From positions 1 to 64,000 of IMG/VR virus record IMGVR_UViG_3300002835_000041: 64,000 nucleotides of DNA. One strand, given 5' to 3'. Below, one piece after another: positions 42,745 through 57,635 of this stretch. Source of the DNA: a virus. Position numbers and translations under genes: made by a program. Under the pieces are notes generated by a model. It worked only from the letters and a program-made list of their open reading frames with translations, was not told the origin of the DNA and searched no databases. Within the stretch, counting starts at the first letter, position 1, and each line of letters opens with the position of its first letter.

Positions 42745-42948
42745 ATGAATCATTCACACGATGACCTATCGCCTGAAGAGCAAGAGTTTGGTATCTGGCT
42801 TGAAAACGGTATAGAAAGAGGCTGGGTTACACCTCCTTATTGCAATACTCACGACGGCGGATACGAATATATGGATGAAGAAGAAATTGAAGAATGGGAC
42901 GCAGGTGGCGACCCATGTTGTCATGTCATCAGATTGATGATATCGTAA
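42745..42948 (+). CDS. Small acidic Cys-containing protein
   Basis: Leaderless promoter TATACT at 42733-38; CNTH and PCCH. Confidence 0.6.
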   Translation: MNHSHDDLSPEEQEFGIWLENGIERGWVTPPYCNTHDGGYEYMDEEEIEEWDAGGDPCCHVIRLMIS

Positions 42949-42965
42949 AAATGAAAAGGAATAAA

Positions 42966-43871
42966 ATGAAGAAAGTACTACTATCAGTTCTAGCAGCAAC
43001 ACTTATGCTAACAGTAACAAGTCCAGCGCAAGCACAAGATCAAAAAGTTCTTGCCATTATTGATTCGGCTATTAATTCTAATAACTTCCCAGCAATTATT
43101 CACGAAGTTTGTTTCACTGCCAAGTCTGTCCTCAATCAAAATCATGAGGCATCATGTCCAAACATGCAACACTTTATGGAAGGCAAAGGCGCTGCATCTG
43201 CAACATGGCCTAAGAGCATAAATGATCCTACATATCACGGAGACTCTATGGTAAAGGCAGCGCTTGCAACAGATCCTAACCTTAAGATTGTTTTTGTCCG
43301 CTTTAACAATGTGAATCGTGTTACTGGATCAAATGCTTTAGGTGGAACTCCTGAAGCGCTTATCTCAGCAATTGATTGGGTATCAAAGAATGCAGAAAAG
43401 TATAGTATTGATGCGCTATCTATTAGTCAATCGGGAGTATCTATGGACCTAAAAACAGGTACAAAGATTTTGCATCCCGCTTGCACAAATACAGCAGTTG
43501 CTAGTTCAGTTTCACAGTTAAGTGAAAAAAATATCCCATCCTTTGCAGCAACAGGCAATGATGGACTTTCTAACCTTGTTGGATTCCCAGCATGCGTTCC
43601 TGGAGTCATTGGCGTAGGAGCCATGGGTTCACCAACTCAGTTTGAAAAGGCAACTAACAGAGGTCCTGGGCTTGATATGGTTGCTTTTGGAAAAGTAAAA
43701 ATTACCAAGTATAACGGTTCGGTTACAGATATTGCTGGAAGTTCTGGAGCAACTGTAGTTACCTCAGCATCATATGTTAGTAAGAATACTGGTAAGGCAT
43801 TTACAGAATATATTAACTCATTAGTTAAGGTTGTTCTGTCTGGTGTGTCTTATCCTTATTCATCTAAGTAA
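42966..43871 (+). CDS. Secreted subtilisin-like (S8) protease
   Basis: Signal peptide; Asp (AIIDS), His (YHG), oxyanion Asn (AATGND), FPAC..GVIGVGA, Ser region variant AGSSGAT. Confidence 0.8.
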   Translation: MKKVLLSVLAATLMLTVTSPAQAQDQKVLAIIDSAINSNNFPAIIHEVCFTAKSVLNQNHEASCPNMQHFMEGKGAASATWPKSINDPTYHGDSMVKAALATDPNLKIVFVRFNNVNRVTGSNALGGTPEALISAIDWVSKNAEKYSIDALSISQSGVSMDLKTGTKILHPACTNTAVASSVSQLSEKNIPSFAATGNDGLSNLVGFPACVPGVIGVGAMGSPTQFEKATNRGPGLDMVAFGKVKITKYNGSVTDIAGSSGATVVTSASYVSKNTGKAFTEYINSLVKVVLSGVSYPYSSK

Positions 43872-43875
43872 ATTA

Positions 43876-43904
43876 AAAGTCCTGGGTATGACTTTAAACT
43901 ACCC
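43876..43904 (+). ncRNA. H-type pseudoknot motif, copy 1
   Basis: Stem 1 AAAGTC/GACTTT, loop CT, stem 2 GGGTA/TACCC, loop AAAC. Confidence 0.55.
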
Positions 43905-43907
43905 CAT

Positions 43908-43980
43908 TGCCCTATAACTCAGTTGGTAGAGTGCCGAACTGTTAATTCGGATGTCCCTGGATCGAGGCCAGGTGGGGCAG
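43908..43980 (+). tRNA. trnN: tRNA-Asn (GUU), no encoded CCA
   Basis: Cloverleaf: TGCCCTA/TGGGGCA acceptor, CCGAA-CTGTTAA-TTCGG anticodon arm, T arm CCTGG-ATCGAGG-CCAGG with an atypical loop. Confidence 0.88.
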
Positions 43981-44028
43981 CAGTTTAGTGTATAATTGTT
44001 ATACCAAAACATTTAAGATAAAGGTAAA

Positions 44029-44688
44029 ATGATAACTAAAAAAAATAACATTTCAGGATCCCAATGGTGGATAAACTCTGAAAACTTATCATTGCCTCAA
44101 ATTTTAATGGAGTCTGGACTACCAGACAAATGGTCTAAGTATAACTCAAAAGAAATTTTAAACATAAAAAGCATACTTAAACCAATAAATAACTATGTCC
44201 TTAATCTATATCCAAAGCCAGAAATTATAAACATAACAAATAACATAGTTACTTTTAGGCAAAGAACTCACGCCGAGATTTGGGTTGAAGAAAGAAAAGA
44301 TGGCACACTGTATGCTTTAGATAAGTGTCATCAAAGACAGTTCTATCCATCTTTAAACAATCTAGAAAATAAAGAGTGTTTTGATCCAACCTATAAGTTT
44401 TATATACCCTGGTTTATAAATAAAAATGTTAGCATTAAGATAGCCAGAGTAGAGGATGAGCCTACACCATTCTACATAGGTGAAAAAAATATTATTGGAA
44501 AGCCCCTGCCACATCTATCAGACTATGCCTATTCAGAGTTTGTTGATTTTAAAATTAAGAATACTGGGGAATACTACTTAAAAGAAAAGTATGCTATTAT
44601 TAGTAAGAGCACGGCAATGTACGATATGTCTGTTGTCTTAAGTGACGAAGAGATATCACAAATAAAGGATTACTATGGACAGCAATGA
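44029..44688 (+). CDS. Hypothetical protein, possibly a divergent paralog of the next gene
   Basis: KFYIPWF and beta-rich C-terminus; promoter GTGTATAAT upstream. Confidence 0.5.
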   Translation: MITKKNNISGSQWWINSENLSLPQILMESGLPDKWSKYNSKEILNIKSILKPINNYVLNLYPKPEIINITNNIVTFRQRTHAEIWVEERKDGTLYALDKCHQRQFYPSLNNLENKECFDPTYKFYIPWFINKNVSIKIARVEDEPTPFYIGEKNIIGKPLPHLSDYAYSEFVDFKIKNTGEYYLKEKYAIISKSTAMYDMSVVLSDEEISQIKDYYGQQ

Positions 44689-45439
44689 GTTAGAATTAAC
44701 TTTCATTCCACACGATACGACCACAGGTCTATTGTCTCCAGAGCCATCCTATAAAAAAATACCACAGTGGTATAGAGATTTGGCAAAACATTTTACAACT
44801 AATGACCTAAAGTCTTTGTGTCCAGTAAACGATAGGGGCGGGGATGGGTCAAATGTTTCTACAAAACTATGCTTGCCATTTCAAGATGCAATGTCTCTTG
44901 GGTATATGTATTTACTGGAAGATGACCTAGAAGTAAAACTTGATATAGATGGAAAGCCATCTCTGTCCTGGAAAAAGAATTTTATGATGATGGACAAAAG
45001 ACCTAATGTTGATATGGCAATACCAAAAGATGTTCACCCAATACATTTTGGGGTTAAGATGCAATGGTATTACGAAACACCAAAAGACTATTCTCTATTG
45101 ATGACTATGCCAATAAACAGACCAGACCTACCGTTCTGGATTCCTTCTGGCATTGTTGATTCTGATATATGGGGACTGCCTGCGTTTATACCATTTTTTA
45201 TAAAAAGAGATTTTGAAGGAGTCATTCCAATGGGAACACCAGTGTTTCAGATGATTCCAATTAAAAGAGAGCCTTGGAATTTAGTAGTTGATGATTCTTT
45301 TGAGGCTATAGAAAAACACCAACTAAGATCAGAAAACAGAAGGTCTGACATAACGGCACACTACAGAAAATTTGCATGGAGAAAAAAAGAATATGCAAAG
45401 TATAACAAAGAACAAGCAAACAACAAGGGAGATGAATAA
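44675..45439 (+). CDS. DUF6065-like (dUTPase-like beta fold) protein
   Basis: KKIPQWY, KLCLPFQDAMSLGY, TPKDYSLL..P.NR.DLPF...SGIVDSD, GTPVFQMIPIKRE. Confidence 0.55.
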   Translation: MDSNELELTFIPHDTTTGLLSPEPSYKKIPQWYRDLAKHFTTNDLKSLCPVNDRGGDGSNVSTKLCLPFQDAMSLGYMYLLEDDLEVKLDIDGKPSLSWKKNFMMMDKRPNVDMAIPKDVHPIHFGVKMQWYYETPKDYSLLMTMPINRPDLPFWIPSGIVDSDIWGLPAFIPFFIKRDFEGVIPMGTPVFQMIPIKREPWNLVVDDSFEAIEKHQLRSENRRSDITAHYRKFAWRKKEYAKYNKEQANNKGDE

Positions 45440-46080
45440 TGTTAAGTAACAGAGAACATAAGTTTTTTGAAAAATATTTAGACAACGATTTAGATCAGTT
45501 GGCTAAATTTTTAGAACAAAAATACGAACTAATTCAAAGCGCTAAACTTCGTGGCGTTGAAACAATGGAAAATGATCCAGGGTATTGGCTAGAGTCTGGA
45601 AGTTTGTCAACTGTAAAGTGGAGAGAGTATAATGTATTTCAACTTTATCATCCATCTCTTCATAAACTATACTCCGAACTATCAAAAACTGTTAAAGAAG
45701 CCTGTGAATATTATGGCGTAGACTTTGAAAAGCAGCAATATTATGTTCAGGGTTGGTTTAATATTAATACCACAGGAAATGGAAAGTTAAACTGGCACGA
45801 TCACGGTGCACCTGGCGCTCCTAATTTTCATGGGTATTACTGTGTAAAGGCTGAGCCATCAACGACATACTATAGACTCTTTGGAGATCCAAATAGAGAA
45901 GTGGCAAATCACAACATAAACAATAGAATGATTGTTTCAGAAATGGGACACCCTCATGCAATGGGAGACTGGGACTGGGAAGGTTCAAGAATAACAGTTG
46001 CGTATGATATTCAACCTCTGCAGTCTTTGCTTATGGGTGGAGAACATACAATTGAACAGCACTGGATTCCATTGTTATAA
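45439..46080 (+). CDS. Putative 2OG-Fe(II) oxygenase
   Basis: GWFNIN, WHDH, HGYYCV, HPHAM, SRITVAYDI. Confidence 0.7.
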   Translation: MLSNREHKFFEKYLDNDLDQLAKFLEQKYELIQSAKLRGVETMENDPGYWLESGSLSTVKWREYNVFQLYHPSLHKLYSELSKTVKEACEYYGVDFEKQQYYVQGWFNINTTGNGKLNWHDHGAPGAPNFHGYYCVKAEPSTTYYRLFGDPNREVANHNINNRMIVSEMGHPHAMGDWDWEGSRITVAYDIQPLQSLLMGGEHTIEQHWIPLL

Positions 46081-46081
46081 A

Positions 46082-46915
46082 ATGAAAAAAATATTAGTTT
46101 ATTTTTATGGGTACAAAAGCAAGTTGCTACCACAAGCAGTAGAGCAACTCATAAAAAATCAAAGTGGTCAAAATGATATACATGTTGTCGTATACGACCA
46201 AACAAATATATCAAGGCCAGAAAAGTTTTTAGGAATAGAATACAATCATATCTACTGGGATAGATTAATATCTAGATTTAAATGCTTTTATCTTCTAAAA
46301 AAAAGAAAAGATTTTGATTTTTTTATGTATGTTGATGGTGCCAAAATGTTTGAAAAGGATTGGGATGCTGAACTATTAAGATACCAGGACGAATCAGATA
46401 TTATACTTTCAGGCAATCACGACATTGTTTTTAATAAAAATAACTATAAGTTTTATCCAGACTGGAATAAAACAAGCATTGCAATGGCAACAAAAAACAA
46501 CTGGTTTGTTAAAGATTTTTTCTTTATGAAATTTAGTTTGTTTGAACTATTTCCTGATATTTCAATATTTAAATATTATGGAGTTGAGGAATATGTTTCC
46601 ATGTATGCAGCGCACAAAGGTATTTCTATAGTTGCTCTTCCAACTAATTTTGTTATTGATCAAGAGCCTAGAATAGAAGAAAATGATTTTGTTCCATTTT
46701 CTCTATATCACAACTATTCAAAAGTTATAGATTCTTTTAAATCAAAAGATGAATCTATGCCTGGAGTAAAAGAACTTATGGATCTTGTAGACTATGATTT
46801 CCGTAGTTTAGAATACTTCCCATATAATACAAACGATGTAGAGTATACATTTTTTTCAAATCTAGATAAAATTTCTGAGCAAAGATTTCATGTAGTGCAG
46901 AATGAGGTATATTGA
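46082..46915 (+). CDS. GT-A glycosyltransferase-like protein (GT60/GlcNAc-transferase-like)
   Basis: N-terminal ILVYFYGYK strand; FMYVDGAKMFEKDWDAELL resembles the GT60 pattern Y.LQIDSH.RF...WD..L but is degenerate. Confidence 0.5.
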   Translation: MKKILVYFYGYKSKLLPQAVEQLIKNQSGQNDIHVVVYDQTNISRPEKFLGIEYNHIYWDRLISRFKCFYLLKKRKDFDFFMYVDGAKMFEKDWDAELLRYQDESDIILSGNHDIVFNKNNYKFYPDWNKTSIAMATKNNWFVKDFFFMKFSLFELFPDISIFKYYGVEEYVSMYAAHKGISIVALPTNFVIDQEPRIEENDFVPFSLYHNYSKVIDSFKSKDESMPGVKELMDLVDYDFRSLEYFPYNTNDVEYTFFSNLDKISEQRFHVVQNEVY

Positions 46916-47478
46916 TGATAACATTGCCTGTAGTAATTAAAAATTTTATTGCTGCTGAAGATGCACAGACACTAATAAATGAGATTAACAGTCCATCAGA
47001 AGTTAATCCTTACCCAGAATATTACAAGACTAGGTATGGAGGAACTGCTTATCCATACAACAAGGTAGTTTTAGATATTCAAAAAAAATATTCTTTACTA
47101 TCTAACGAGACACACCAAAGACTTAATCCAGAAGAAACAAAGCAAATAAAAACATTTAAATCTTTTGGTTCAGTTTGGACAAAAGGTAGTTCAGCAAACG
47201 CACACGCTGACGATCAGCCACCAGAAGAATTCATTGAATATAGTACGGTAATATATCTTGACGATAATTTTACTGGAGGAGAATTATATTTCCCAAATCT
47301 TAACTTTACATATAAGCCAGAAAAATATGATGGGATATTTTTTGTTAGTGACGGAGAATTATGGAGTCATGGAATATCCGAAATAGAAAGTGGACATAGG
47401 TCAACCCTACTCTACATGCACACAACACAAACAGAACATTCAGGGGGGTATACAATTGTTGATCCAGACCTTAATTAA
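46912..47478 (+). CDS. Prolyl-4-hydroxylase-like 2OG-Fe(II) oxygenase
   Basis: AHADD, VIYLDDNFTGGELYF, SHGISEI, HRSTL. Confidence 0.85.
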   Translation: MMITLPVVIKNFIAAEDAQTLINEINSPSEVNPYPEYYKTRYGGTAYPYNKVVLDIQKKYSLLSNETHQRLNPEETKQIKTFKSFGSVWTKGSSANAHADDQPPEEFIEYSTVIYLDDNFTGGELYFPNLNFTYKPEKYDGIFFVSDGELWSHGISEIESGHRSTLLYMHTTQTEHSGGYTIVDPDLN

Positions 47479-47557
47479 AAAAATTAAGACATACTTAATA
47501 CTAAGAGAAATAAAGAAAAATGATAAAAAAAACAGATACCTGTATTAAGGATAATAT

Positions 47558-48982
47558 ATGATAATTCTTGGAGTAAACGAAACATCTCATGACGCATCAG
47601 TATCTCTAATCAAAGATGGAGAAATTCTTTTTGCAGGGCATGCAGAAAGATATAGCAAACAAAAAAATGACTGGTATATCAATGATAGTTTAATAAAAGA
47701 TGCTTTGCAGTATGGGGCACCAGATCATATTGCCTACTATGAAAAGCCCCTTCTGAAGGCCTCTAGGCTGGCTCTAAGGGGTGGATCTGGAGACTGGAAA
47801 CCAAGGTTTGATATTCCTGGTATACCAAGGAAACATTTTAGTCATCACTATTCTCACGCTGCAGCGGGATACTACACTAGTTCTTTTAGTGATTCCGTAA
47901 TAGTTGTGCTTGATGCTATTGGAGAATACAACACATCTACAATATGGGTTGGTGAAGGAGATAAGATTAGGCTAAAGTATAAGCAAAACTATCCAGTTAG
48001 TTTTGGATTATTTTATTCTGCTTTCACAAAACTAATAGGTCTAATGCCAAATCAAGAAGAATATATCATGATGGGAATGGCAGCATACGGAGACTGGACA
48101 AAATACTATAGAAAAGTAGATGAGTATTTTCCTTCATATACAAAACAAAAATATAATTTTCATCAGGGAATAAATGATTGGGGAGTAAAGATCACTGAGC
48201 AAGATAGGTTTGATATTGCTGCAGCAGTTCAGGTTGTCTATGAGCAAAGACTAAATGATTTTATGCACATGGCATACTCTATTACTGGAAAAAAGAATTT
48301 AGTATTTATGGGTGGTTGTGCACTTAACTCATCAGCAAACACTATGCTTTGGAACATATTTGATATGATCTGGATTATGCCAAACCCTGGAGATGCTGGC
48401 AGTTCTTTGGGTGCTGCTGCTGCACTTTATGGAAAACATCTTGAATGGAAAGACCCATACCTTGGTTATGATCTGGGTGGAAAATATCCTATTCAGAAAA
48501 TTATTGAGGGGATATTAAAAGACGGTATAGTAGCAGTAGCATCAGGAAGAGCAGAATATGGTCCAAGAGCATTAGGAAATAGATCAATTCTTGCAGACCC
48601 AAGAGATCCACTAATCAAAGACAAAGTAAATAGAATTAAACAGAGAGAATTATTTAGGCCATTTGCTCCTGTAGTTTTAGCAGATCACGCATATAGATGG
48701 TTTGATATGGATTTTGAAAGCCCATATATGCAGTACACAGTCAAGTGCTTACAGCCAGACAAGATACCTTCTGTGGTTCATGAAGATGGTACTTCTAGAG
48801 TTCAGACAGTTACAAGAGAACAACATCCAGGATTGTACAGGGTTATAAATAAATTTTATCTACAAACTGGAGTTCCAATACTCTTGAATACTAGTCTTAA
48901 CATAAAGGGTCAACCGCTCCTAAATGATGAAAACGATATACTTAAATGGGAAAAAGAATACAACTTTACAATATGTAGGTAA
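47558..48982 (+). CDS. Carbamoyltransferase (NodU/CmcH/TobZ family)
   Basis: SHDASV, HHYSHAAAGY, LDAIGE, GGCALNS, GDAG, EYGPRALGNRSIL, FRPFAP, DGTSRVQTV, LLNTSLN. Confidence 0.95.
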   Translation: MIILGVNETSHDASVSLIKDGEILFAGHAERYSKQKNDWYINDSLIKDALQYGAPDHIAYYEKPLLKASRLALRGGSGDWKPRFDIPGIPRKHFSHHYSHAAAGYYTSSFSDSVIVVLDAIGEYNTSTIWVGEGDKIRLKYKQNYPVSFGLFYSAFTKLIGLMPNQEEYIMMGMAAYGDWTKYYRKVDEYFPSYTKQKYNFHQGINDWGVKITEQDRFDIAAAVQVVYEQRLNDFMHMAYSITGKKNLVFMGGCALNSSANTMLWNIFDMIWIMPNPGDAGSSLGAAAALYGKHLEWKDPYLGYDLGGKYPIQKIIEGILKDGIVAVASGRAEYGPRALGNRSILADPRDPLIKDKVNRIKQRELFRPFAPVVLADHAYRWFDMDFESPYMQYTVKCLQPDKIPSVVHEDGTSRVQTVTREQHPGLYRVINKFYLQTGVPILLNTSLNIKGQPLLNDENDILKWEKEYNFTICR

Positions 48983-49019
48983 ACTGGTATAATAGATATG
49001 TCCTTAAAGGAGGAATAAA

Positions 49020-49634
49020 ATGGCAGCAAAAGGTAGTCTAGAAGCAATCATTGAGATTGCAAAAAAGGAAGTGGGCACAATTGAAGGCCCTAAAGATAAT
49101 GAAACAAAATATGGCAAGTGGACTGGGATGAATTTTCAGCCATGGTGCCAGTCATTTGTTTCTTGGTGTGCATTTACATCGGGATTAGATCCAAAGAAGT
49201 ATCCAAAGTCTGCATCAACAGTAGCAGCGTCAGATTGGTTCAAGAAGAATGGGCGTTGGTCAGATGCTCGTAATGATGATCCACAAGCAGGAGACTGGAT
49301 TTATTTTGATTTTCCAGAAGATGGTGTAAATCGTATTTCACATGTTGGAATCTGTATCAAGAACAACGGAGATGGAACAATCCAAGTTATTGAGGGAAAC
49401 ACTTCAGGAACTGCAAAGGGAGATCAGCGCAATGGCGGAATGTGCGTAGAGAAGACTCGTGGTTATGTAAAAAACAACAAGAAGAAGTTGCTTAATGGAG
49501 TTGTCGGTTGGGGTCGTCCAGTTTATACTGGTGAAGAAAATGCTCCGCTTCTCAATAAGGTGGTAGCACCAGTTGTAGCAAAGCCTGCAGTAAAGCCAGT
49601 AGTTAAGAAACCAGTAGCAAAGAAGGCTAAGTAA
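49020..49634 (+). CDS. CHAP-domain amidase (probable endolysin)
   Basis: QPWCQSFVSW, SHVGI, IEGNTS; Lys/Pro/Val-rich tail. Confidence 0.85.
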   Translation: MAAKGSLEAIIEIAKKEVGTIEGPKDNETKYGKWTGMNFQPWCQSFVSWCAFTSGLDPKKYPKSASTVAASDWFKKNGRWSDARNDDPQAGDWIYFDFPEDGVNRISHVGICIKNNGDGTIQVIEGNTSGTAKGDQRNGGMCVEKTRGYVKNNKKKLLNGVVGWGRPVYTGEENAPLLNKVVAPVVAKPAVKPVVKKPVAKKAK

Positions 49635-49835
49635 ATGGAATCAACAAAAAGAACTCTACTAAAAACAGCAAGTTGGGAAACATTTCATCTTGTTGGTGTT
49701 GCTGGTGTAATTTATTTATTTACTGGTGAGTGGGAGTATGCAAGTCTTGGTGCTCTTATTTACATTGGTTGGGAAGCACTCGGATATTTCTTACACGAAA
49801 GAGTTTGGGCTAAGTTTGGAAACAAGGTAAAGTAA
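49635..49835 (+). CDS. DUF2061 small membrane protein
   Basis: RTLLKTASW...YFLHERVWAK. Confidence 0.8.
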   Translation: MESTKRTLLKTASWETFHLVGVAGVIYLFTGEWEYASLGALIYIGWEALGYFLHERVWAKFGNKVK

Positions 49836-49942
49836 TGCGTATTAAGATAATTAAGTTTGTCGTAAAGGCATTAGGCTATGAGTGGGGTGGGGATTCGCTT
49901 AAGGCACCAATCTGGACAGTAAAAGAAAAGAAAAAGAAATAG
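49835..49942 (+). CDS. Small basic protein (35 aa)
   Basis: Coupled at both ends; MRIKIIKFVVKALG... Confidence 0.4.
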   Translation: MRIKIIKFVVKALGYEWGGDSLKAPIWTVKEKKKK

Positions 49943-50127
49943 TGCCAGCCTACGAATATGTTTGTGAGTCCTGTAATAAGAACTACACAAAGGTTCGTAG
50001 TATAAAAGAAGACGATCCAGGGTATGGTTGTGAAACTTGCAATCTGCCTCTGGTTCGTGTATACTCGAATATAGGAGCAGTTTTCAACGGTAGTGGATTT
50101 TATTCCACTGATAACAGAAAGAAATAG
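49942..50127 (+). CDS. FmdB-family zinc-ribbon protein
   Basis: MPAYEYVCESC...CETC...VFNGSGFYSTD. Confidence 0.85.
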   Translation: MPAYEYVCESCNKNYTKVRSIKEDDPGYGCETCNLPLVRVYSNIGAVFNGSGFYSTDNRKK

Positions 50128-50137
50128 GCAGTATACT

Positions 50138-50392
50138 ATGAAGACAATGATTGATGAATCAGTAGAAGTAAAGCAGTGGACACTATCTCCATTGGATAGG
50201 TGTGATTCTTGTGCTGCTGAAGCGTTAGTTCAAGTTACTGGAATCTCTGGAGATTTAATGTTTTGTGGACATCACTACAATAAGATTATGGATAATCCTG
50301 AAGGTTATAAAAAAATGATGTCTTTTGCTCTTACCATCCTTGATGAAAGAGAAAAACTTGTTGAGAATAAGTCAAAGGGTAAGGATTACTAA
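50138..50392 (+). CDS. Small Zn-binding hypothetical protein
   Basis: DRCDSC and FCGHH. Confidence 0.6.
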   Translation: MKTMIDESVEVKQWTLSPLDRCDSCAAEALVQVTGISGDLMFCGHHYNKIMDNPEGYKKMMSFALTILDEREKLVENKSKGKDY

Positions 50393-51153
50393 TGATCATT
50401 CAGATTATTGGACTACCTGGTTCTGGTAAAACAGAACTTGCAAAGGCTTTAAAAGAAAGAATTAATGCTATACATCTTAATGCAGATGAAGTTCGTGCAA
50501 CAGTAAATTCTGATCTTGGATTTACTCCTGAAGACAGGCTTGAACAAGCACGACGAATGGGAGAGATGGCAAGGCTAATTGCAAAACAAGGTGTTGCTCC
50601 AGTCATTGTAGATTTTGTATGCCCAACAGAATTAACTCGTAAAGCATTTGGAAAGCCAGATATTTTAATCTACATGGAAACAATTGAAGAAAGCAGATTT
50701 GAAGATACTAATAAAATGTTTGAAGTACCCAGCAATTTTGACATGGCTTTTATTAGTCATGAGTGGAACGCAAACGAAAAAGCAACAGAAATTATTAAGC
50801 AGTTCAGACTACATGACTGGTCTGCACCCACAACACTTATGCTAGGTAGGTACCAGCCTTGGCACGAAGGCCACCACGCCCTTTACAAGGAGGCTGGCAA
50901 GAGAACTGAGCAGGTACTTCTGGGAGTCCGTAATACCTATAATACAAGTGAAAAGGATCCACTTAAGTTTGATCAGGTAAAAGAATATATTGCCAAAGAT
51001 GAATTTATGGATGGTGCATTAGTATTAAGATTGCCTAACATTACTAACATTGTGTATGGTCGTGATGTAGGGTATAAGATTGAGCAAGTAGATTTGGGGG
51101 CAGACATTCATGCTATATCGGCTACGCAAAAGCGCAAAGAAATGGGCATCTAA
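50392..51153 (+). CDS. APS-kinase (CysC)-like P-loop domain fused to an HxGH nucleotidyltransferase domain
   Basis: IIGLPGSGKT, LNADEVR, LGFTPEDRLEQARRMGE, VIVDFVCP; then MLGRYQPWHEGH. Confidence 0.85.
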   Translation: MIIQIIGLPGSGKTELAKALKERINAIHLNADEVRATVNSDLGFTPEDRLEQARRMGEMARLIAKQGVAPVIVDFVCPTELTRKAFGKPDILIYMETIEESRFEDTNKMFEVPSNFDMAFISHEWNANEKATEIIKQFRLHDWSAPTTLMLGRYQPWHEGHHALYKEAGKRTEQVLLGVRNTYNTSEKDPLKFDQVKEYIAKDEFMDGALVLRLPNITNIVYGRDVGYKIEQVDLGADIHAISATQKRKEMGI

Positions 51154-51201
51154 GGTTTGGAACTTAATAACTAAAGGCCCTAAAAATATGGAGTGGCCAG
51201 C

Positions 51202-51405
51202 ATGAATGTATCTAAACAAAGATCAGCACTAAAGGCTATTACATGGCGTATAATTGGAACAGCAGATACATTTGCTATTGCTTGGCTTATAACCAAAGAG
51301 CCAGTTACAGCAGGTGCAATCGCAAGTTTCGAGGTAGTTACAAAAACAATCCTTTATTACTTCCATGAGCGTGGTTGGAATAAAGTTAAATGGGGGAGAA
51401 AATAA
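51202..51405 (+). CDS. DUF2061 small membrane protein (second copy)
   Basis: RSALKAITWRIIGT...YYFHERGWNK. Confidence 0.85.
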   Translation: MNVSKQRSALKAITWRIIGTADTFAIAWLITKEPVTAGAIASFEVVTKTILYYFHERGWNKVKWGRK

Positions 51406-51812
51406 TGTTTGAATATTATGTAAAGAAAGTAACAAAGGTAGTTGATGGAGATACCATTGATGTCGATATTGATTTAGGGTTTGACATCTCTTTTAGTTCA
51501 AGAGTCAGGCTGGCTGGTATTGATACACCTGAGTCTCGTACAACAGACAAGGCTGAAAAGGCTTTAGGACTGGAAGCAAAGGCTTATTTAAAGGCTGCTA
51601 TTGACAGTGCTAAGTCTGTAGTGATCAAGACAGAGAAGATGGACTCATCAGAAAAGTATGGTCGCATCCTTGGTTGGGTATACCTTGATGGGGATACCGT
51701 TTCAATCAATGACAAGATGATCAATGATGGCCATGCCTGGGGCTATATGGGAGAGACAAAGGTCAAAGATTTCGCTGCACTTGCAAAGGCCAGAAAGAAG
51801 TCTGGCAAGTGA
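51405..51812 (+). CDS. Thermonuclease (SNase) family nuclease
   Basis: VVDGDTI, RVRLAGIDTPE, EKYGRILG. Confidence 0.92.
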   Translation: MFEYYVKKVTKVVDGDTIDVDIDLGFDISFSSRVRLAGIDTPESRTTDKAEKALGLEAKAYLKAAIDSAKSVVIKTEKMDSSEKYGRILGWVYLDGDTVSINDKMINDGHAWGYMGETKVKDFAALAKARKKSGK

Positions 51813-52141
51813 GTGATGACTTTGATATTGTTGACAACCTAGTTTTAAATGGTGGCCTAGAGTTTGCAGGTAAAGACTCTGAGACTGGAGAGCCATTGTA
51901 TAAGCCTACAGAGAGGCTTAAAGATATTGATGCTAGGCTTAGCGAGGACTTGTCTGCATATTTTTCAGAGGTAACTTTAAAACTTTGGGAAAAAGGTTTC
52001 CTTGACATGAATATAACAGAGAAAGATCCTTTGGTAAAGTTAGGACCAAAAGGCTTTGATGCTTTAGCCATAAAGTCTTTACCAAAAGATGAGAGAGTAG
52101 TCATTGAAGAAATAGTGAAGGCTCTTTTTAACAAAAACTGA
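51809..52141 (+). CDS. Hypothetical protein
   Basis: Coupled GTG start. Confidence 0.6.
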   Translation: MSDDFDIVDNLVLNGGLEFAGKDSETGEPLYKPTERLKDIDARLSEDLSAYFSEVTLKLWEKGFLDMNITEKDPLVKLGPKGFDALAIKSLPKDERVVIEEIVKALFNKN

Positions 52142-52165
52142 TATACTGGGTGTCTAGGAGTATTT

Positions 52166-52582
52166 ATGAATAATTTTTATGGTGCTATTGGGACAACTCT
52201 AACTATCATTTTGCTATTATACATATACATCCTGAGAAATAATATAAGGAATAATCGGCAGCCTATAATTAGTCAGTCAATGTTGCAGCACCGATATAGC
52301 AATAGAAAAAATAATGCAAGAAGAATAAAGGTTAAAACTCAGGCAAACCTTCATTATGATAAAACAAACATAAAGGTTATTATTTTTGATAATGATGCGT
52401 ACTGGATCAAGGACAATATTTTTTATAAAGCACCACTAGTTGATGAACTTATCGATAAGGAAGCAGCAGAACAAGTTGACACGATACACATGGATAAGGT
52501 ACAATTAGACAAGATGTTATTCATAATGGATAAATTAAGAGAAGGGATTGGCAATGATAGTAGGAGTTCAGGGGACCAGTAG
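52166..52582 (+). CDS. Hypothetical protein with an N-terminal TM segment
   Basis: SD AGGAG; hydrophobic N-terminus. Confidence 0.6.
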   Translation: MNNFYGAIGTTLTIILLLYIYILRNNIRNNRQPIISQSMLQHRYSNRKNNARRIKVKTQANLHYDKTNIKVIIFDNDAYWIKDNIFYKAPLVDELIDKEAAEQVDTIHMDKVQLDKMLFIMDKLREGIGNDSRSSGDQ

Positions 52583-52904
52583 TTTTGATGACTACCAGAT
52601 CTTCCTTAGATCTATGGCTGTTGCCTTATCTGAATTAACAGAAGAAGATAAAGAATTTTATCTATATTCTGCAGGACCAGAAAACATTAATATGATGGCC
52701 ATGGAGTTTGTTAACTTATCAGAAAGAGGCTTAAAGTCTCGTGGTAAAAGTATTAAGTATAAGCCTGTCCCACATTGGTGGATTGAAACAAATATTTCAG
52801 AGTTAAATCATTTTGCTTTTTTATGTAAACCAAAAGAGCCAATGTCTAAACTTGTTCATTTTTCAAAACTAAACAACATCAATACAAATGTATATAATTT
52901 TTAA
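52554..52904 (+). CDS. Hypothetical protein, possibly SLOG/YspA-like
   Basis: MIVGVQGTSSFDDY resembles the YspA/DUF2493 N-terminal motif, but the match is weak. Confidence 0.35.
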   Translation: MIVGVQGTSSFDDYQIFLRSMAVALSELTEEDKEFYLYSAGPENINMMAMEFVNLSERGLKSRGKSIKYKPVPHWWIETNISELNHFAFLCKPKEPMSKLVHFSKLNNINTNVYNF

Positions 52905-52954
52905 ATAGAATATACATAAGCCAGTGCTTTGCACACAAACAGAACGGAAACACT

Positions 52955-53167
52955 ATGAAGTTAATTAATTCTTTAGAGACTATGGAATCAATAGTCAACA
53001 AGAACAGACAACTGTCTTGGGATGGATGGACAGTAGTGGAAACATTTCCATCAGAGAAGGCATACTTTTCAAAGTTTGGCATTTATAAAAACAACAAATG
53101 GCAAATGAAAAAAGAGTTTGTTCCTTCTAATCTAGGTTGGGAAATTCCTGATAAGTATGTGATCTAA
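52955..53167 (+). CDS. Hypothetical protein
   Basis: Clean ORF rich in Trp. Confidence 0.6.
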   Translation: MKLINSLETMESIVNKNRQLSWDGWTVVETFPSEKAYFSKFGIYKNNKWQMKKEFVPSNLGWEIPDKYVI

Positions 53168-53449
53168 TTGAATAAATTTAAATGGAAAGACAACGCTGTT
53201 TGTTTAGATTATGACACAAATTTATTCTTTGACAAATATGAAGATGATGAAATACTAAGGCCAGCAATAGATGCTTTATGCTTTTCCTGCCCAGTAAGAA
53301 AAGAATGTTTTTCTGTTGGAATTTCAGGTAAAGAGTGGGGTGTTTGGGGCGGGGTATACTTAGAAAATGGAGAGATATCAAAAGAATTCTCTAGCCACAA
53401 GAGTAAAAATGACTGGGGAATGACATGGCAATCATTAACAATGGAGTAA
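53168..53449 (+). CDS. whiB: WhiB-family Fe-S transcription factor
   Basis: Four Cys (C...C-x2-C-x5-C: CFSCPVRKEC), LFF and GVWGG turn. Confidence 0.93.
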   Translation: MNKFKWKDNAVCLDYDTNLFFDKYEDDEILRPAIDALCFSCPVRKECFSVGISGKEWGVWGGVYLENGEISKEFSSHKSKNDWGMTWQSLTME

Positions 53450-53450
53450 T

Positions 53451-53690
53451 ATGTACACAGACGCAATGAGAAGAGCATTTAGATCACTTCATGCTCCTAA
53501 TAATTTTTCTTTACAGATTATAGATAATGATGACTTTATAACAGTAAAAGCAAAAGAAAAAGACTTTATGTCTTTAGAGACTGTGGAGTTAAAAAAGCAG
53601 GCTATTGAATATATGATTCGTGTAAAGAAGGCACTAGAGGATAACGGAGCAATTGTTCTTCTAGTTAGAGAGGGTGGCAAAGAACTATGA
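53451..53690 (+). CDS. Hypothetical protein
   Basis: Coupled ORF after whiB. Confidence 0.6.
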   Translation: MYTDAMRRAFRSLHAPNNFSLQIIDNDDFITVKAKEKDFMSLETVELKKQAIEYMIRVKKALEDNGAIVLLVREGGKEL

Positions 53691-54094
53691 TCCAGCCGAT
53701 ATTGTTAGTTATTTTATCAGTCACATCTACGGTATTAGGTTTTCTTTTTTACATTCAAAGAAAAAAGACTATACAGATAGTTGCCAATATGCTAGATTTT
53801 ATGATGATCCAGGAAGCACAAAAACAAGAAACAAAAACAGAGCAAGAACAGTCTAATGAAGACTTTTTAAAATTTATTTCAGATTCTCGTGACTGGGCAT
53901 ACACCTATATAGACGAAGTGCAAGCATCTTTAAATAAGTTTATTAGTGATATTGAGCCAGAGATTAGTTATTTTAAAGAGTATGGGGATGTCGGATCTAT
54001 GGCTCCCAACTACTACTCTATGAAAAAAATCACTGGAGCATATGAAGAACTAAAGAAACTGCTACCAGAAGACTATGGTAAAATAGATACATGA
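53687..54094 (+). CDS. Membrane-anchored hypothetical protein
   Basis: N-terminal TM ILLVILSVTSTVLGFLFY. Confidence 0.6.
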   Translation: MIQPILLVILSVTSTVLGFLFYIQRKKTIQIVANMLDFMMIQEAQKQETKTEQEQSNEDFLKFISDSRDWAYTYIDEVQASLNKFISDIEPEISYFKEYGDVGSMAPNYYSMKKITGAYEELKKLLPEDYGKIDT

Positions 54095-54693
54095 TTAATG
54101 ATCCATCAAACAAAGATGAAGTCTATTTAAAAAATGTTGAAAAAATAGGAAGTTCTTCAGAAAACATTCGATATATAGAAAATATCTTGTCTGAAGAAGA
54201 GCACACAGTTTTACTTGAGTATGTAAAGGCCCGTAAAGAATGGGTTCACGAGCCATGGGATGCCGAGACTGTTGGTCCAGACCAGATGCCACAAGACATT
54301 TTAAATATGTTAGAAAAAATATTTGTATTTGTTCAAAATACTGCCACAGATTTTTATGATGTAAAGATTAATGATTTTAAAAGGGACAACCTTGTTTTAA
54401 TTAAGTTTCCACGGGGTCTTGTTTTATATCCACATATAGATACAGATTCAGTAGAATCAAATCACATTGCATCGATATACTATATTAATGACGACTATGT
54501 TGGCGGAGAGATAAACTTTCCAGATTACAATGTAAAGATTCATCCAAAGCCTAACAGTGTTGTTTTCTTTCCTGGCAATGAAAATTACTTACATGAAGTC
54601 CTTACGATTCGAAGTGGAGACCGATATAGCACATCTATGTGGTTTCAGTTTACTGGTTCTACTTTTAACAAAAATGCAGAATGGTATAAATAA
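54091..54693 (+). CDS. P4H-like 2OG-Fe(II) oxygenase
   Basis: PHIDTD, YYINDDYVGGEINF, YLHEV, DRYS. Confidence 0.88.
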   Translation: MINDPSNKDEVYLKNVEKIGSSSENIRYIENILSEEEHTVLLEYVKARKEWVHEPWDAETVGPDQMPQDILNMLEKIFVFVQNTATDFYDVKINDFKRDNLVLIKFPRGLVLYPHIDTDSVESNHIASIYYINDDYVGGEINFPDYNVKIHPKPNSVVFFPGNENYLHEVLTIRSGDRYSTSMWFQFTGSTFNKNAEWYK

Positions 54694-54695
54694 AA

Positions 54696-55247
54696 ATGAC
54701 AATATCTGAATTAGGAAATTCTGTAGACAATATACAAATTACAGAAAATGTTTTATCTATAGAAGAGCATAGACAACTTCTTTATTATACAACCAATCTT
54801 GATTCTTGGGTTACTCAGCCTTGGGGTGTTAAATTTTTTAAAGATGGACTGCCAGAACAAATCATCAGTATATTAGAAAAAGTTTTTAGGATTGCCGATA
54901 AAAAATGCAGAGAAACCTACAATGTAAGTCTTAATGTTTTTGAAAGAAAAGAAGTACACCTGATTAAGTTTGAAAAAGGCTACAAGATGAATGAGCATGC
55001 AGATACTACGGGGGATTTTGCAGCAATATACTATATTAACGATGACTATGAAGGAGGAGAAATAAACTTTACAGATCATAATCTTAAGATTAAGCCAAAG
55101 TCTAATAGTCTTATTACATTTCCCAGCAATGAAAACTACTGGCACGAAGTTCTTGAAAATACTGTAAAAGAAAGATACTCCTCTACTCTATGGTTTACAA
55201 TTGAAGGATCTAGCCGTGTAAGACCCGAAAGTGGACTGGTCAGATGA
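54696..55247 (+). CDS. P4H-like 2OG-Fe(II) oxygenase (tandem paralog)
   Basis: EHADT, YYINDDYEGGEINF, YWHEV, ERYS. Confidence 0.88.
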   Translation: MTISELGNSVDNIQITENVLSIEEHRQLLYYTTNLDSWVTQPWGVKFFKDGLPEQIISILEKVFRIADKKCRETYNVSLNVFERKEVHLIKFEKGYKMNEHADTTGDFAAIYYINDDYEGGEINFTDHNLKIKPKSNSLITFPSNENYWHEVLENTVKERYSSTLWFTIEGSSRVRPESGLVR

Positions 55248-55408
55248 TAAAATTCAAGCCATATGAGGATCGTGCATTTGATGCGTTCTATTCATGCAAT
55301 GTATCTGAGTGTGAACTTGAAGCAGAAAAAATATACGGAACAGAGACATCGATTGTTGATGTTTGTTTAAATCATTATAAAGAATTATCAGAAAAAGGTT
55401 ATCGATGA
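55244..55408 (+). CDS. Small Cys/His protein (54 aa)
   Basis: ATGA coupling; CNVSEC and VCLNH. Confidence 0.5.
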   Translation: MIKFKPYEDRAFDAFYSCNVSECELEAEKIYGTETSIVDVCLNHYKELSEKGYR

Positions 55409-55563
55409 AAGATGTTATCTTGTCAACACTAACAGGTTTTGGATGTGGCGTAGTATTTGCCGCATTCAAATTACCAGTCCCAGCACCACCAGTTTTTGCG
55501 GGAGTCGCAGGAATTATTGGTCTATGGATTGGATTCACAGCACTAACAAAAATAATATCCTAG
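55405..55563 (+). CDS. XapX/DUF1427-like small membrane protein (52 aa)
   Basis: Hand translation gives G...G.VFAAFKLPVPAPPVFAGVAGIIGLWIG. Confidence 0.8.
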   Translation: MKDVILSTLTGFGCGVVFAAFKLPVPAPPVFAGVAGIIGLWIGFTALTKIIS

Positions 55564-55573
55564 GAGGAAAATT

Positions 55574-55843
55574 ATGAATGAACAAATTAAAAGAGCACTA
55601 GCGTCATATGGAAGATCAGTTCTTGGAGCAGCAACAGCAATGTATGCCTCTGGAGTGACAGATCCACAGACACTAGCATACTCACTACTTGGAGCACTTG
55701 TCCCCGTAGTATTGAGAGCAGCCAACCCTAATGACTTGGCATTTGGCAAGATGCCAGATGTTAAAGAGGTTGAGGTAGCACTAAAGACTGCTAAGGTAGT
55801 TAAGAAGGCACCAGCAAAGAAAACAGCAGTAAAAAAGAAGTAG
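55574..55843 (+). CDS. Holin-like membrane protein with a Lys-rich tail
   Basis: SD AGGAGG; ALASYGRSVLGAA...LLGALVPVVLRAANP; tail KKAPAKKTAVKKK. Confidence 0.55.
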   Translation: MNEQIKRALASYGRSVLGAATAMYASGVTDPQTLAYSLLGALVPVVLRAANPNDLAFGKMPDVKEVEVALKTAKVVKKAPAKKTAVKKK

Positions 55844-55855
55844 TATAATAGATAC

Positions 55856-55970
55856 TATTCCGCTATGAGACTTTAAAAGGTTTTACAACGGATGTTCCCT
55901 TGATGGGAAAGTTAGCAGGAGTTGAATCTTCGTGGCTAATAGACCTGAGCAGTCGTCTATAAACTGCTCA
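55856..55970 (+). ncRNA. Candidate structured small RNA (three hairpins plus a terminal pseudoknot, copy 2)
   Basis: TATAAT at 55844-49 upstream, no ORF. Stems TCCG/CGGA, TTCCC/GGGAA, TTAGC/GCTAA; pseudoknot ATAGAC/GTCTAT plus GAGCAG/CTGCTC. Confidence 0.55.
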
Positions 55971-55991
55971 TTTCTTATGCTATAATATTAA

Positions 55992-56043: not shown

Positions 56044-56448
56044 ATGGTAAAAACAGCATTGGATCTTTTTAATGATCCATTTTTCAATACCTTCTCAAAT
56101 CTACAGAAGGTAACAACAACAACAAACTATCCACCTTATAACCAAATCAAACTAAATGATACAGAGTATATTCTTTCATTTGCTTTGGCTGGATTTTCTA
56201 AGGATGATGTCTCAGTATCGCTAGACAATCGCAAACTTACAATCAAGGGCGAAAAGCAGGATGCTGAGTTACCAGAGGGTGCAGAGTATCTACATAAGGG
56301 CATTGCTGCTCGTAAGTTTACTGATATCTTTACCCTTCCTGAGTTTGTTGAGGTGGTTGGGGCTGAGTTTAAGGATGGTATCTTAGATATCAAACTTGAG
56401 AAGCAGATCCCAGAAGACAAACTACCAAAAACAATCGCAATTAAGTAG
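56044..56448 (+). CDS. Small heat-shock protein (Hsp20/IbpA-like)
   Basis: NYPPYN, FALAGFSKDDV, YLHKGIAARKF, FKDGILDI. Confidence 0.95.
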   Translation: MVKTALDLFNDPFFNTFSNLQKVTTTTNYPPYNQIKLNDTEYILSFALAGFSKDDVSVSLDNRKLTIKGEKQDAELPEGAEYLHKGIAARKFTDIFTLPEFVEVVGAEFKDGILDIKLEKQIPEDKLPKTIAIK

Positions 56449-57379: not shown

Positions 57380-57407
57380 GCAGTAATTATACACCACAAA
57401 TGATTTG

Positions 57408-57480
57408 TACCCCTGGCAAGAATCGAACTTGCGACGCATGGCTTAGAAGTCCATCGTTCTGTCCACTGAACTACAGAGGT
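57408..57480 (-). tRNA. trnR: tRNA-Arg (UCU)
   Basis: Reverse complement ACCTCTG...CTTCTAA anticodon loop...GTTCGATTC...CAGGGGT. Confidence 0.9.
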
Positions 57481-57484
57481 ATTG

Positions 57485-57557
57485 TATCTCCAACGGAATT
57501 CGAATCCGTGTTGCTGCCGTGAAAGGGCAGAGTCCTAGGCCACTAGACGATGAAGAC
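57485..57557 (-). tRNA. trnE: tRNA-Glu (UUC)
   Basis: Reverse complement with CTGCC-CTTTCAC-GGCAG anticodon arm and TTCGAAT T-loop. Confidence 0.92.
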
Positions 57558-57561
57558 AGAG

Positions 57562-57635
57562 TACACCAGGTAGGACTTGAACCTACGATAACCGAATTAT
57601 GAGTTCGGGGCCTTAACCAACTTGGCTACTGGTGC
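57562..57635 (-). tRNA. tRNA with CAU anticodon (Met or Ile2; not resolved)
   Basis: Reverse complement GCACCAG...CCGAA-CTCATAA-TTCGG...GTTCAAGTC...CTGGTGT. Confidence 0.88.

Follow-up and report, generated by a model that had tools for sequence, protein, structure and literature searches.

What is the small H-type pseudoknot that appears twice in the first 64,000 nucleotides of the IMG/VR virus record IMGVR_UViG_3300002835_000041? This stretch, hereafter the window, is the initial 64 kb of a source genome that consists of a single contig of 118,981 bp. The original prediction described two copies of one pseudoknot with fully compensatory changes in both stems. Both sequences were re-read exactly at 43876-43904 and 55939-55969, and all differences between copy 1 and copy 2 are compensated. 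The scale of the phenomenon was underestimated: six copies are present in the genome, and hundreds of phage contigs elsewhere carry the same element. The knot is a very common RNA family of phages from many bacterial groups.

In copy 1 (plus strand; AAAGTC-CT-GGGTA-T-GACTTT-AAAC-TACCC), stem 1 is formed by positions 43876-43881 and 43890-43895, and stem 2 by GGGTA (43884-43888) and TACCC (43900-43904); loop 1 is CT (43882-43883), the junction is a single T (43889), and loop 3 is AAAC (43896-43899). Copy 2 (plus strand; ATAGAC-CT-GAGCAG-TC-GTCTAT-AAA-CTGCTC) pairs ATAGAC (55939-55944) with GTCTAT (55955-55960) in stem 1, has the same CT loop 1, and pairs GAGCAG(T) with (A)CTGCTC in stem 2, the last base of which is 55969; a U-rich tail, ATTTCTTAT, comes next. 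The sequence of copy 2 is unchanged in related contigs. Interleaved stems of 6 and 5 bp are expected by chance: when the window is dinucleotide-shuffled, each 64-kb strand has about 0.9 of them, and therefore the family, rather than the pair, carries the argument. A covariance model of the family found exactly six matches in the 118,981-bp genome, with E-values from 9e-11 to 3e-4, the next match having an E-value of 0.18. They are located at 43876 (copy 1; 35.6 bits, E 9e-8) and 55939 (copy 2; 35.5 bits, E 9.3e-8) on the plus strand, and at 70760, 71998, 73691 and 77277 on the minus strand. All six are on the local coding strand.

The consensus of the proposed family of phage gene-end pseudoknots is nnnC / CU / GAGCA / W / Gnnn / (nn)AAAC / UGCUC / (A), 28 nt in H-type topology. 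It comprises a short stem 1 of 3-5 bp closed by a C-G pair, the 2-nt loop 1 CU, a stem 2 of 5-6 bp, a one-base loop 2 at the junction that is mostly A or U, and an A-rich loop 3 that ends in AAAC or, in a variant, in AAAAG. The distal pairs of stem 1 are variable, and those of stem 2 vary less often. The near-fixed positions, namely the C-G pair closing stem 1, the CU, the A-U pair of stem 2, the W and the AAAC, all ring the helix junction in the H-type fold. Stem 2 begins with a G-C pair in 136 of 143 sequences, and loop 1 ends in an invariant U. The two hairpins are weak on their own (-2.6 kcal/mol for stem 1 and -5.0 kcal/mol for stem 2), so the helices are expected to work jointly. Neither stem differs in length between copies with and without a downstream U-run.

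Members of the family share this architecture, and both stems covary. The pattern CCTGAGCA-N5-9-AAACTGCTC, which leaves stem 1 unconstrained, has at least 120 matches in IMG/VR. Among 144 pattern matches with stem 1 left free, this stem can form at least 3 bp in 143 cases and at least 4 bp in 108. In the 103 unique matches with a gap of 7 nt, the three inner pairs of stem 1 are Watson-Crick in 102-103 sequences, two of these pairs being freely variable; the fourth pair is present in 79% and the fifth in 33%. For stem 2, matches were defined by the stem 1 hairpin, CCT and AAAC only. Where the 5' strand of stem 2 in such matches is not GAGCA, all five pairs are retained in 26 of 42, against approximately 0.7% expected by chance. 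The double changes include GGGTA/TACCC, GGACA/TGTCC, AAGCA/TGCTT, AGACA/TGTCT, GGCCA/TGGCC and GGGCG/CGCCC. G-U pairs recur in stem 2 (GAGTA/TGCTC at least 10 times) and A-C pairs do not, which indicates an RNA of the given strand. In an alignment of 143 sequences, the observed covariation score was reached by none of 500 shuffles, and sliding the pairing partners destroys the signal; since this alignment had been selected for pairing, the tests unselected for pairing bear the weight. The homologues with covariation that had been proposed as a check on the pseudoknot were recovered in large numbers by the pattern scans.

Three sequence variants are each found in more than 110 IMG/VR contigs, and these counts are lower bounds. 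The copy 1 allele GGGTA/TACCC occurs in at least 111 contigs and the form of copy 5, AAAAG-GCTCA, in at least 112, both with stem 1 pairing and placement as in the rest of the family. In species-representative genomes, the enrichment of stem 1 pairing is restricted to gap-7 matches (47 of 63), and matches with other gaps are chance-like. Bins and genomes with true matches include Saccharibacteria, Lachnospiraceae, Eggerthellaceae, Anaerolineae, Calothrix, Polynucleobacter, Clostridium and others; these knots presumably belong to prophages or binned phage contigs. Two IMG/VR contigs with a giant-virus bin label (GVMAG), L281 and L314, contain the GGGTA/TACCC knot and may be mis-binned phage contigs. 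The G+C content of knot-bearing loci ranges from 27 to 66%. A cultured cyanophage, Synechococcus phage S-CRM01, has about eight matches, some of which exactly fill the spacers between tRNA genes: tRNA-Ser/knot/4 nt/tRNA-Met/knot/2 nt/tRNA-Leu, and also tRNA-Tyr/knot. Further S-CRM01 knots are 4-5 nt ahead of tRNA-Asp and tRNA-Lys. The tRNA-Ser(TGA) of this phage, predicted by ARAGORN at positions 149328-149413 of NC_015569.1, is unannotated in the deposited record; it is located between tRNA-Arg and tRNA-Met and abuts a knot copy.

The original prediction assigned the knot to no named family, and Rfam 15 models give no match to it either. Throughout the genome only tRNAs reach the gathering score, and at E-values up to 10 nothing overlaps the knots in the regions around copies 1, 2, 3 and 4. 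Literature searches on the conserved sequences and on pseudoknot motifs of phages found no description of the knot, and the text of a catalogue of 10,006 phage motifs (PMC10690425) names no such element. The PAGEV motif is plasmid-associated rather than found at phage gene ends, and the RNAs of the Minerva preprint are different from the knot. The family thus appears to be new and undescribed. A comparison with 50,697 deposited phages revealed no close relative of the genome at the DNA level; only its tRNA parts match. The sequencing runs listed for this phage are of lake-water DNA, and none of RNA is among them.

Viral loci totalling 2.9 Mb yielded 328 unique instances for counts of the genomic context, 298 of them with 300-nt flanks; an upstream open reading frame (ORF) was required to have at least 70 codons on the same strand and a stop codon at most 40 nt from the knot. 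Such an ORF precedes 160 of the 298 instances, whereas only 19 have a convergent ORF with its end close to their 3' side; a smaller count of orientations gave 95 co-oriented and 9 convergent cases. The first paired base lies at least 4 nt past the stop codon and almost never nearer, characteristically at 4-8 nt and most often at 5-7 nt, and the distances show no 3-nt periodicity. On the downstream side, a run of four or more T within 12 nt is found in 23-25% of instances (5.8% in the background), a ribosome-binding site with a start codon within 45 nt in 26-29% (7.8%), and -10-like hexamers are enriched about twofold at 0-40 nt. A tRNA gene begins at most 20 nt downstream in 31 of 328 instances, typically after 4 nt. 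Of the 27 tRNA-Asp(GTC) genes in these loci, 18 have a knot 3-8 nt upstream.

The knot adjoins many unrelated genes: of 127 loci, no more than 22 have any one protein family in common. A DUF932-like protein (phrog_1221) is the most frequent neighbour, and the succession of DUF932-like gene, knot and tRNA-Asp forms a conserved module in many IMG/VR contigs and in this genome (70679-71817, minus strand; phrog_1221, E 3e-100). The best deposited relatives of the DUF932-like protein of this genome are from Streptomyces phages (52% identity), which would fit an actinobacterial host; in the 21 kb examined of two such phages with the best matches, Paradiddles and TunaTartare, no knot was found. Right behind tRNA-Asp, at genome positions 70641-70667 on the minus strand, a knot-like arrangement TATGCA-CT-GCAA-TGCATA-AAAA-TTGC has the CT and A-rich loops, but is closed by A-T and has 4 bp in stem 2; it is unscored by the covariance model and may be a degenerate copy or a chance occurrence.

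Both copies noted in the window are intergenic, in line with the original claim that they are non-coding. Copy 1 begins 4 nt after a TAA stop codon (43869-43871, plus strand), in agreement with the family-wide onset at 4 nt. This codon closes a 325-aa ORF (42894-43871) whose product weakly matches a protease-like domain in PHROG. The tRNA-Asn(GTT) reported just downstream starts 3 nt beyond the knot (43908-43981, plus strand; ARAGORN; Rfam tRNA model, 58.9 bits). Two solitary tRNAs of this genome, Asn-GTT (43908-43981) and Asp-GTC (L001 6679-6753), encode no CCA, and both decode codons of queuosine-modified tRNAs. The clustered tRNA genes for Met, Glu and Arg (57407-57635, minus strand) have no knot ahead of them.

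Copy 2 occupies part of a 200-nt gap between an ORF (55574-55843) and the hsp20 gene (56044-56448, plus strand; phrog_432, E 2.5e-37). An extended -10 box, TGCTATAAT (55978-55986, plus strand), follows 9 nt past the knot, ahead of hsp20. The proposal that copy 2 stands at the 3' end of a candidate small RNA is supported by alignment of a candidate promoter-driven RNA of about 115 nt from 8 distinct related IMG/VR contigs: similarity and synteny break straight past the knot. In the region of the candidate RNA (plus strand, 55844-55938 with copy 2 as its 3' end), a TATAAT box (55844-55849) lies right behind the stop codon of the preceding ORF, and some 95 nt with three hairpins lead up to the knot. 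Hairpin 2 occurs in the compensated forms CTCCC/GGGAG, TTCCC/GGGAA and CTCTT/AAGAG, and hairpin 3 in the forms TTAGC/GCTAA and TCAGC/GCTGA. Inside hairpin 3, a 3-bp stem carries the loop AGTCGAA, which resembles a T-loop. The region 55844-55975 has no Rfam match.

Each of the early-region copies closes a gene block and is followed by a regulatory gap. A U-run is found behind copies 2, 4 and 6, and copies 1 and 3 adjoin tRNAs. The gaps behind copies 4 and 6 (71940-71990 and 77220-77275 of the genome, minus strand) contain paired TTATCCACA sequences, which are DnaA-box-like, and ACGTGG motifs, and precede the next gene block. The knot would thus be the opening part of a repeated regulatory cassette. 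Classical terminators with a hairpin and a U-run are not enriched between 42000 and 60000 of the window (11 seen, 10.3 expected from shuffles), despite the presence of several transcription units.

What could such an element do? The original prediction listed a role in 3'-end protection or processing, a protein-binding site and a small aptamer. The context statistics favour the first of these, and the near-invariant junction residues would also be compatible with protein or ligand recognition. Our tentative preference, held with less than even confidence, is for a compact module of RNA 3' ends, which would stop exonucleases and in some cases end transcription. A 3' boundary is suggested by the close placement on one side only, after stop codons, by the position at the end of the small RNA and by the enrichment of U-runs, as well as by the promoter next downstream and the lack of enrichment of ordinary terminators at 42-60 kb. 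We speculate that phages place an autonomously folding H-type knot at the 3' edge of an RNA unit, as near the stop codon as the terminating ribosome permits without unwinding it. The entry channel of a terminating ribosome holds 4 nt of mRNA past the stop codon. The minimal distance of the knot equals this length, so the knot would stay folded during translation. The 3' end itself could arise by intrinsic termination at a downstream U-run (copies 2, 4 and 6), by an RNase P cut at an adjoining tRNA (copies 1 and 3), or by an endonuclease cut in an A/U-rich spacer. The knot with a tail of a few nucleotides would then halt 3'-to-5' exonucleases and stabilise the mRNA or small RNA that precedes it. 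To engage structured RNA, RNase R, PNPase and RNase II require an unpaired 3' stretch of roughly 7 or more nucleotides; a tail of 3-7 nt left by RNase P would therefore be protective. The conserved junction residues may serve the tertiary packing of a very small knot.

Several observations weigh against this 3'-end module. About three quarters of the copies have no U-run, and in about a quarter a ribosome-binding site with a start codon comes within the next 45 nt; thus many knots are probably not terminators. The tRNA-knot-tRNA spacers of S-CRM01 offer no mRNA to protect. A mere roadblock has no obvious need for the near-invariant C-CU, W-G and AAAC, nor for a stem 2 that is mostly constant across loci of 27-66% G+C. 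RNAs that combine a pseudoknot, occurrence in several phyla and several residues conserved to at least 97% often have a more specific biochemistry (PMC5737381). The invariant junction would nevertheless fit a 3'-end module if it is needed for the folding of so small a knot, as it may be in luteoviral pseudoknots.

Such conservation leads to a broader alternative, which is less likely than not but has a real chance of being true: the knot could be a minimal RNA with its own biochemistry, either a tRNA stand-in for punctuation or an aptamer, ribozyme or decoy of the smallest class, with the junction as its active or binding site. The tRNA stand-in, on its own rather unlikely, would be a mimic of the acceptor arm in which stem 2 stacks on stem 1 and provides surrogate tRNA punctuation for the cutting of polycistronic phage RNA. 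With U(-1), a first G-C pair and an A discriminator, it would be cut by RNase P in loop 1 and by RNase Z past the A, and be a substrate of the CCA-adding enzyme. The invariant U closing loop 1 and the G-C pair that opens stem 2 in 136 of 143 sequences agree with this, as do the base past stem 2, which is A in 69%, and the linkage to tRNAs seen in the 18 of 27 tRNA-Asp genes with a knot 3-8 nt upstream, in the occupied inter-tRNA spacers of S-CRM01 and in the position of copy 2 directly behind the stem with the T-loop-like hairpin. Bacterial RNase P cuts a small H-type pseudoknot in loop 1 if RCCA follows, with a preference for U(-1) (PMC12710915). In the knot, ACCA comes next in 14 of 134 cases, about twice the product of the single-position frequencies, but about 90% of the copies have no CCA, which weakens the case for a tRNA-like RNase P substrate with 3' RCCA. 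Moreover, a T-loop is lacking, the stack has just 9-11 bp, and the most conserved residues of the junction (C-G, W and AAAC) are not determinants of RNase P or RNase Z; cleavage in loop 1 would wreck the knot and leave the upstream mRNA unprotected, and the majority of copies have no tRNA nearby.

The near-invariant junction cluster with a free distal stem is also a typical recognition surface. The knot could be an operator for a phage or host RNA-binding protein, or a decoy, a small stable RNA that RNase Z and RNase P cut out of tRNA arrays and mRNA tails and that titrates a host nuclease or defence protein. Genomes with multiple copies (six here, about eight in S-CRM01) are compatible with this, and the tRNA ends of S-CRM01 would free a knot of approximately 32-36 nt with very short tails; in phage-host conflict, type III antitoxins are a known case of pseudoknot RNAs, about 35 nt long, acting as protein inhibitors. 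We regard this possibility as quite unlikely, because no linked phage partner is seen (no protein family in more than 22 of 127 loci), a trans-acting RNA has no need of tight one-sided placement after stop codons, and the copies are scattered singles rather than tandem arrays. A ligand aptamer of the size and topology of preQ1-I, or a very small self-processing RNA, is highly improbable, even though the knot combines the pseudoknot, phyla-wide occurrence and several near-invariant nucleotides named for "biochemically sophisticated" RNAs (PMC5737381), resembles the smallest riboswitch in its size, H-type topology and A-rich loop 3, and small ribozymes are reported from phage tRNA arrays (PMC10879173). 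No Rfam riboswitch or ribozyme model matches it even at E-values up to 10. The single A or U of loop 2 leaves no base to pair with a ligand, and no expression platform is apparent, with the Shine-Dalgarno sequence free and a U-run mostly lacking; for a ribozyme, 28 nt give no space for more helices and are fewer than in every known self-cleaving class. Finally, the knot could be an inert spacer on mobile gene or tRNA cassettes that insulates against mispairing and spreads by recombination, its conservation reflecting descent. The many unrelated neighbour genes, conserved modules such as that of DUF932-like gene, knot and tRNA-Asp, and the near-identical stem 1 sequences within S-CRM01 (TTAGTC three times), which suggest recent duplication, point in this direction. 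Such a spacer is nonetheless very unlikely, since the junction residues are kept at 27-66% G+C and across phyla while stem 1 has fully turned over with compensation, which indicates purifying selection on the fold and its core rather than recent descent alone.

Other candidates were rejected. Recoding by frameshift or read-through matches the spacing, but the distances have no 3-nt periodicity, though one frame of the knot holds UGA, and no downstream frame exists; tRNAs, U-runs and promoters follow instead. A DNA-level element is unlikely, as the strand bias relative to genes and the occurrence of G-U without A-C pairs indicate an element acting at the RNA level. A type III antitoxin of the ToxI kind does not agree with six dispersed single copies without a tandem array, and the neighbouring proteins include no family common to more than 22 of 127 loci, toxin families not having been searched by name. 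The preQ1-I riboswitch does not agree with the single base of loop 2, the position after stop codons and the Shine-Dalgarno sequence outside stem 2.

If this picture holds, tailed phages have a structured RNA motif that ranks among their commonest and has gone without a name. Annotation of phage genomes, in which the 3' boundaries of transcription and processing units are difficult to place, would gain a simple sequence signpost for them, and synthetic constructs a natural 28-nt module that could stabilise or punctuate RNA. Since S-CRM01 and its host are cultured, the function of the knot is directly testable, and its invariant junction, remarkable for its small size, makes it attractive for structure determination.

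Among the closest known RNAs are the compact H-type frameshift stimulators of the luteovirus type (BWYV, PEMV and ScYLV). They are also tiny: loop 1 is 2 nt long and starts with C, one nucleotide forms the junction, and loop 3 is A-rich and runs along a stem 1 of 4-5 bp; their loops and junction are conserved and their distal pairs variable, and they likewise lie 5-7 nt past the A-site codon. In the phage knot, however, this codon is a stop codon and not a slippery site, the spacing has no periodicity, and tRNAs, U-runs and promoters rather than an open frame follow. The knot also differs in belonging to DNA phages, with many copies per genome, some of them between tRNAs. The preQ1-I riboswitch (RF00522), about 30 nt long, is a similar H-type RNA whose loop 3 is A-rich and ends in C before stem 2. 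Its loop 2 has 4-6 nt including a ligand-pairing C, in contrast to the single A or U of the knot; it resides in 5' leaders of queuosine genes, whereas the knot is 3' of genes and does not match the model. The antitoxins of the ToxI type and the abiF motif (RF03085) are also structured RNAs of about 35 nt from phages and bacteria, and the abiF motif has been reported in cyanophage S-CREM1 (PMC9964418). Unlike these, the knot is not tandem, has no linked toxin seen among its neighbours and does not match RF03085.

The 3' end of TYMV and the pseudoknot substrates of RNase P (PMC12710915) share with the knot the H-type fold, a U before the first G-C pair of stem 2 and, in a minority of knots, a last strand that runs into A(CCA), and the knot is linked to tRNA genes. 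In contrast to them, it has no T-loop, has CCA in about 10% of copies and is internal in transcripts of DNA phages; unlike TYMV, it contains no recognisable aminoacylation identity elements. In placement, the knot resembles intrinsic terminators, REP elements and the RNase III-processed intercistronic hairpins of T7, which likewise follow the direction of the transcript and stand directly after stop codons where units end, before the next promoter; about a quarter of the knots have a U-run as well. Unlike these terminators and stabilising hairpins, the knot consists of two weak helices (-2.6 and -5.0 kcal/mol) instead of one strong G+C-rich hairpin, its core is conserved across phyla, and the U-run is mostly lacking. 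The likeliest role of the knot, the formation and protection of 3' ends, is of a known kind but built in an unusual way.

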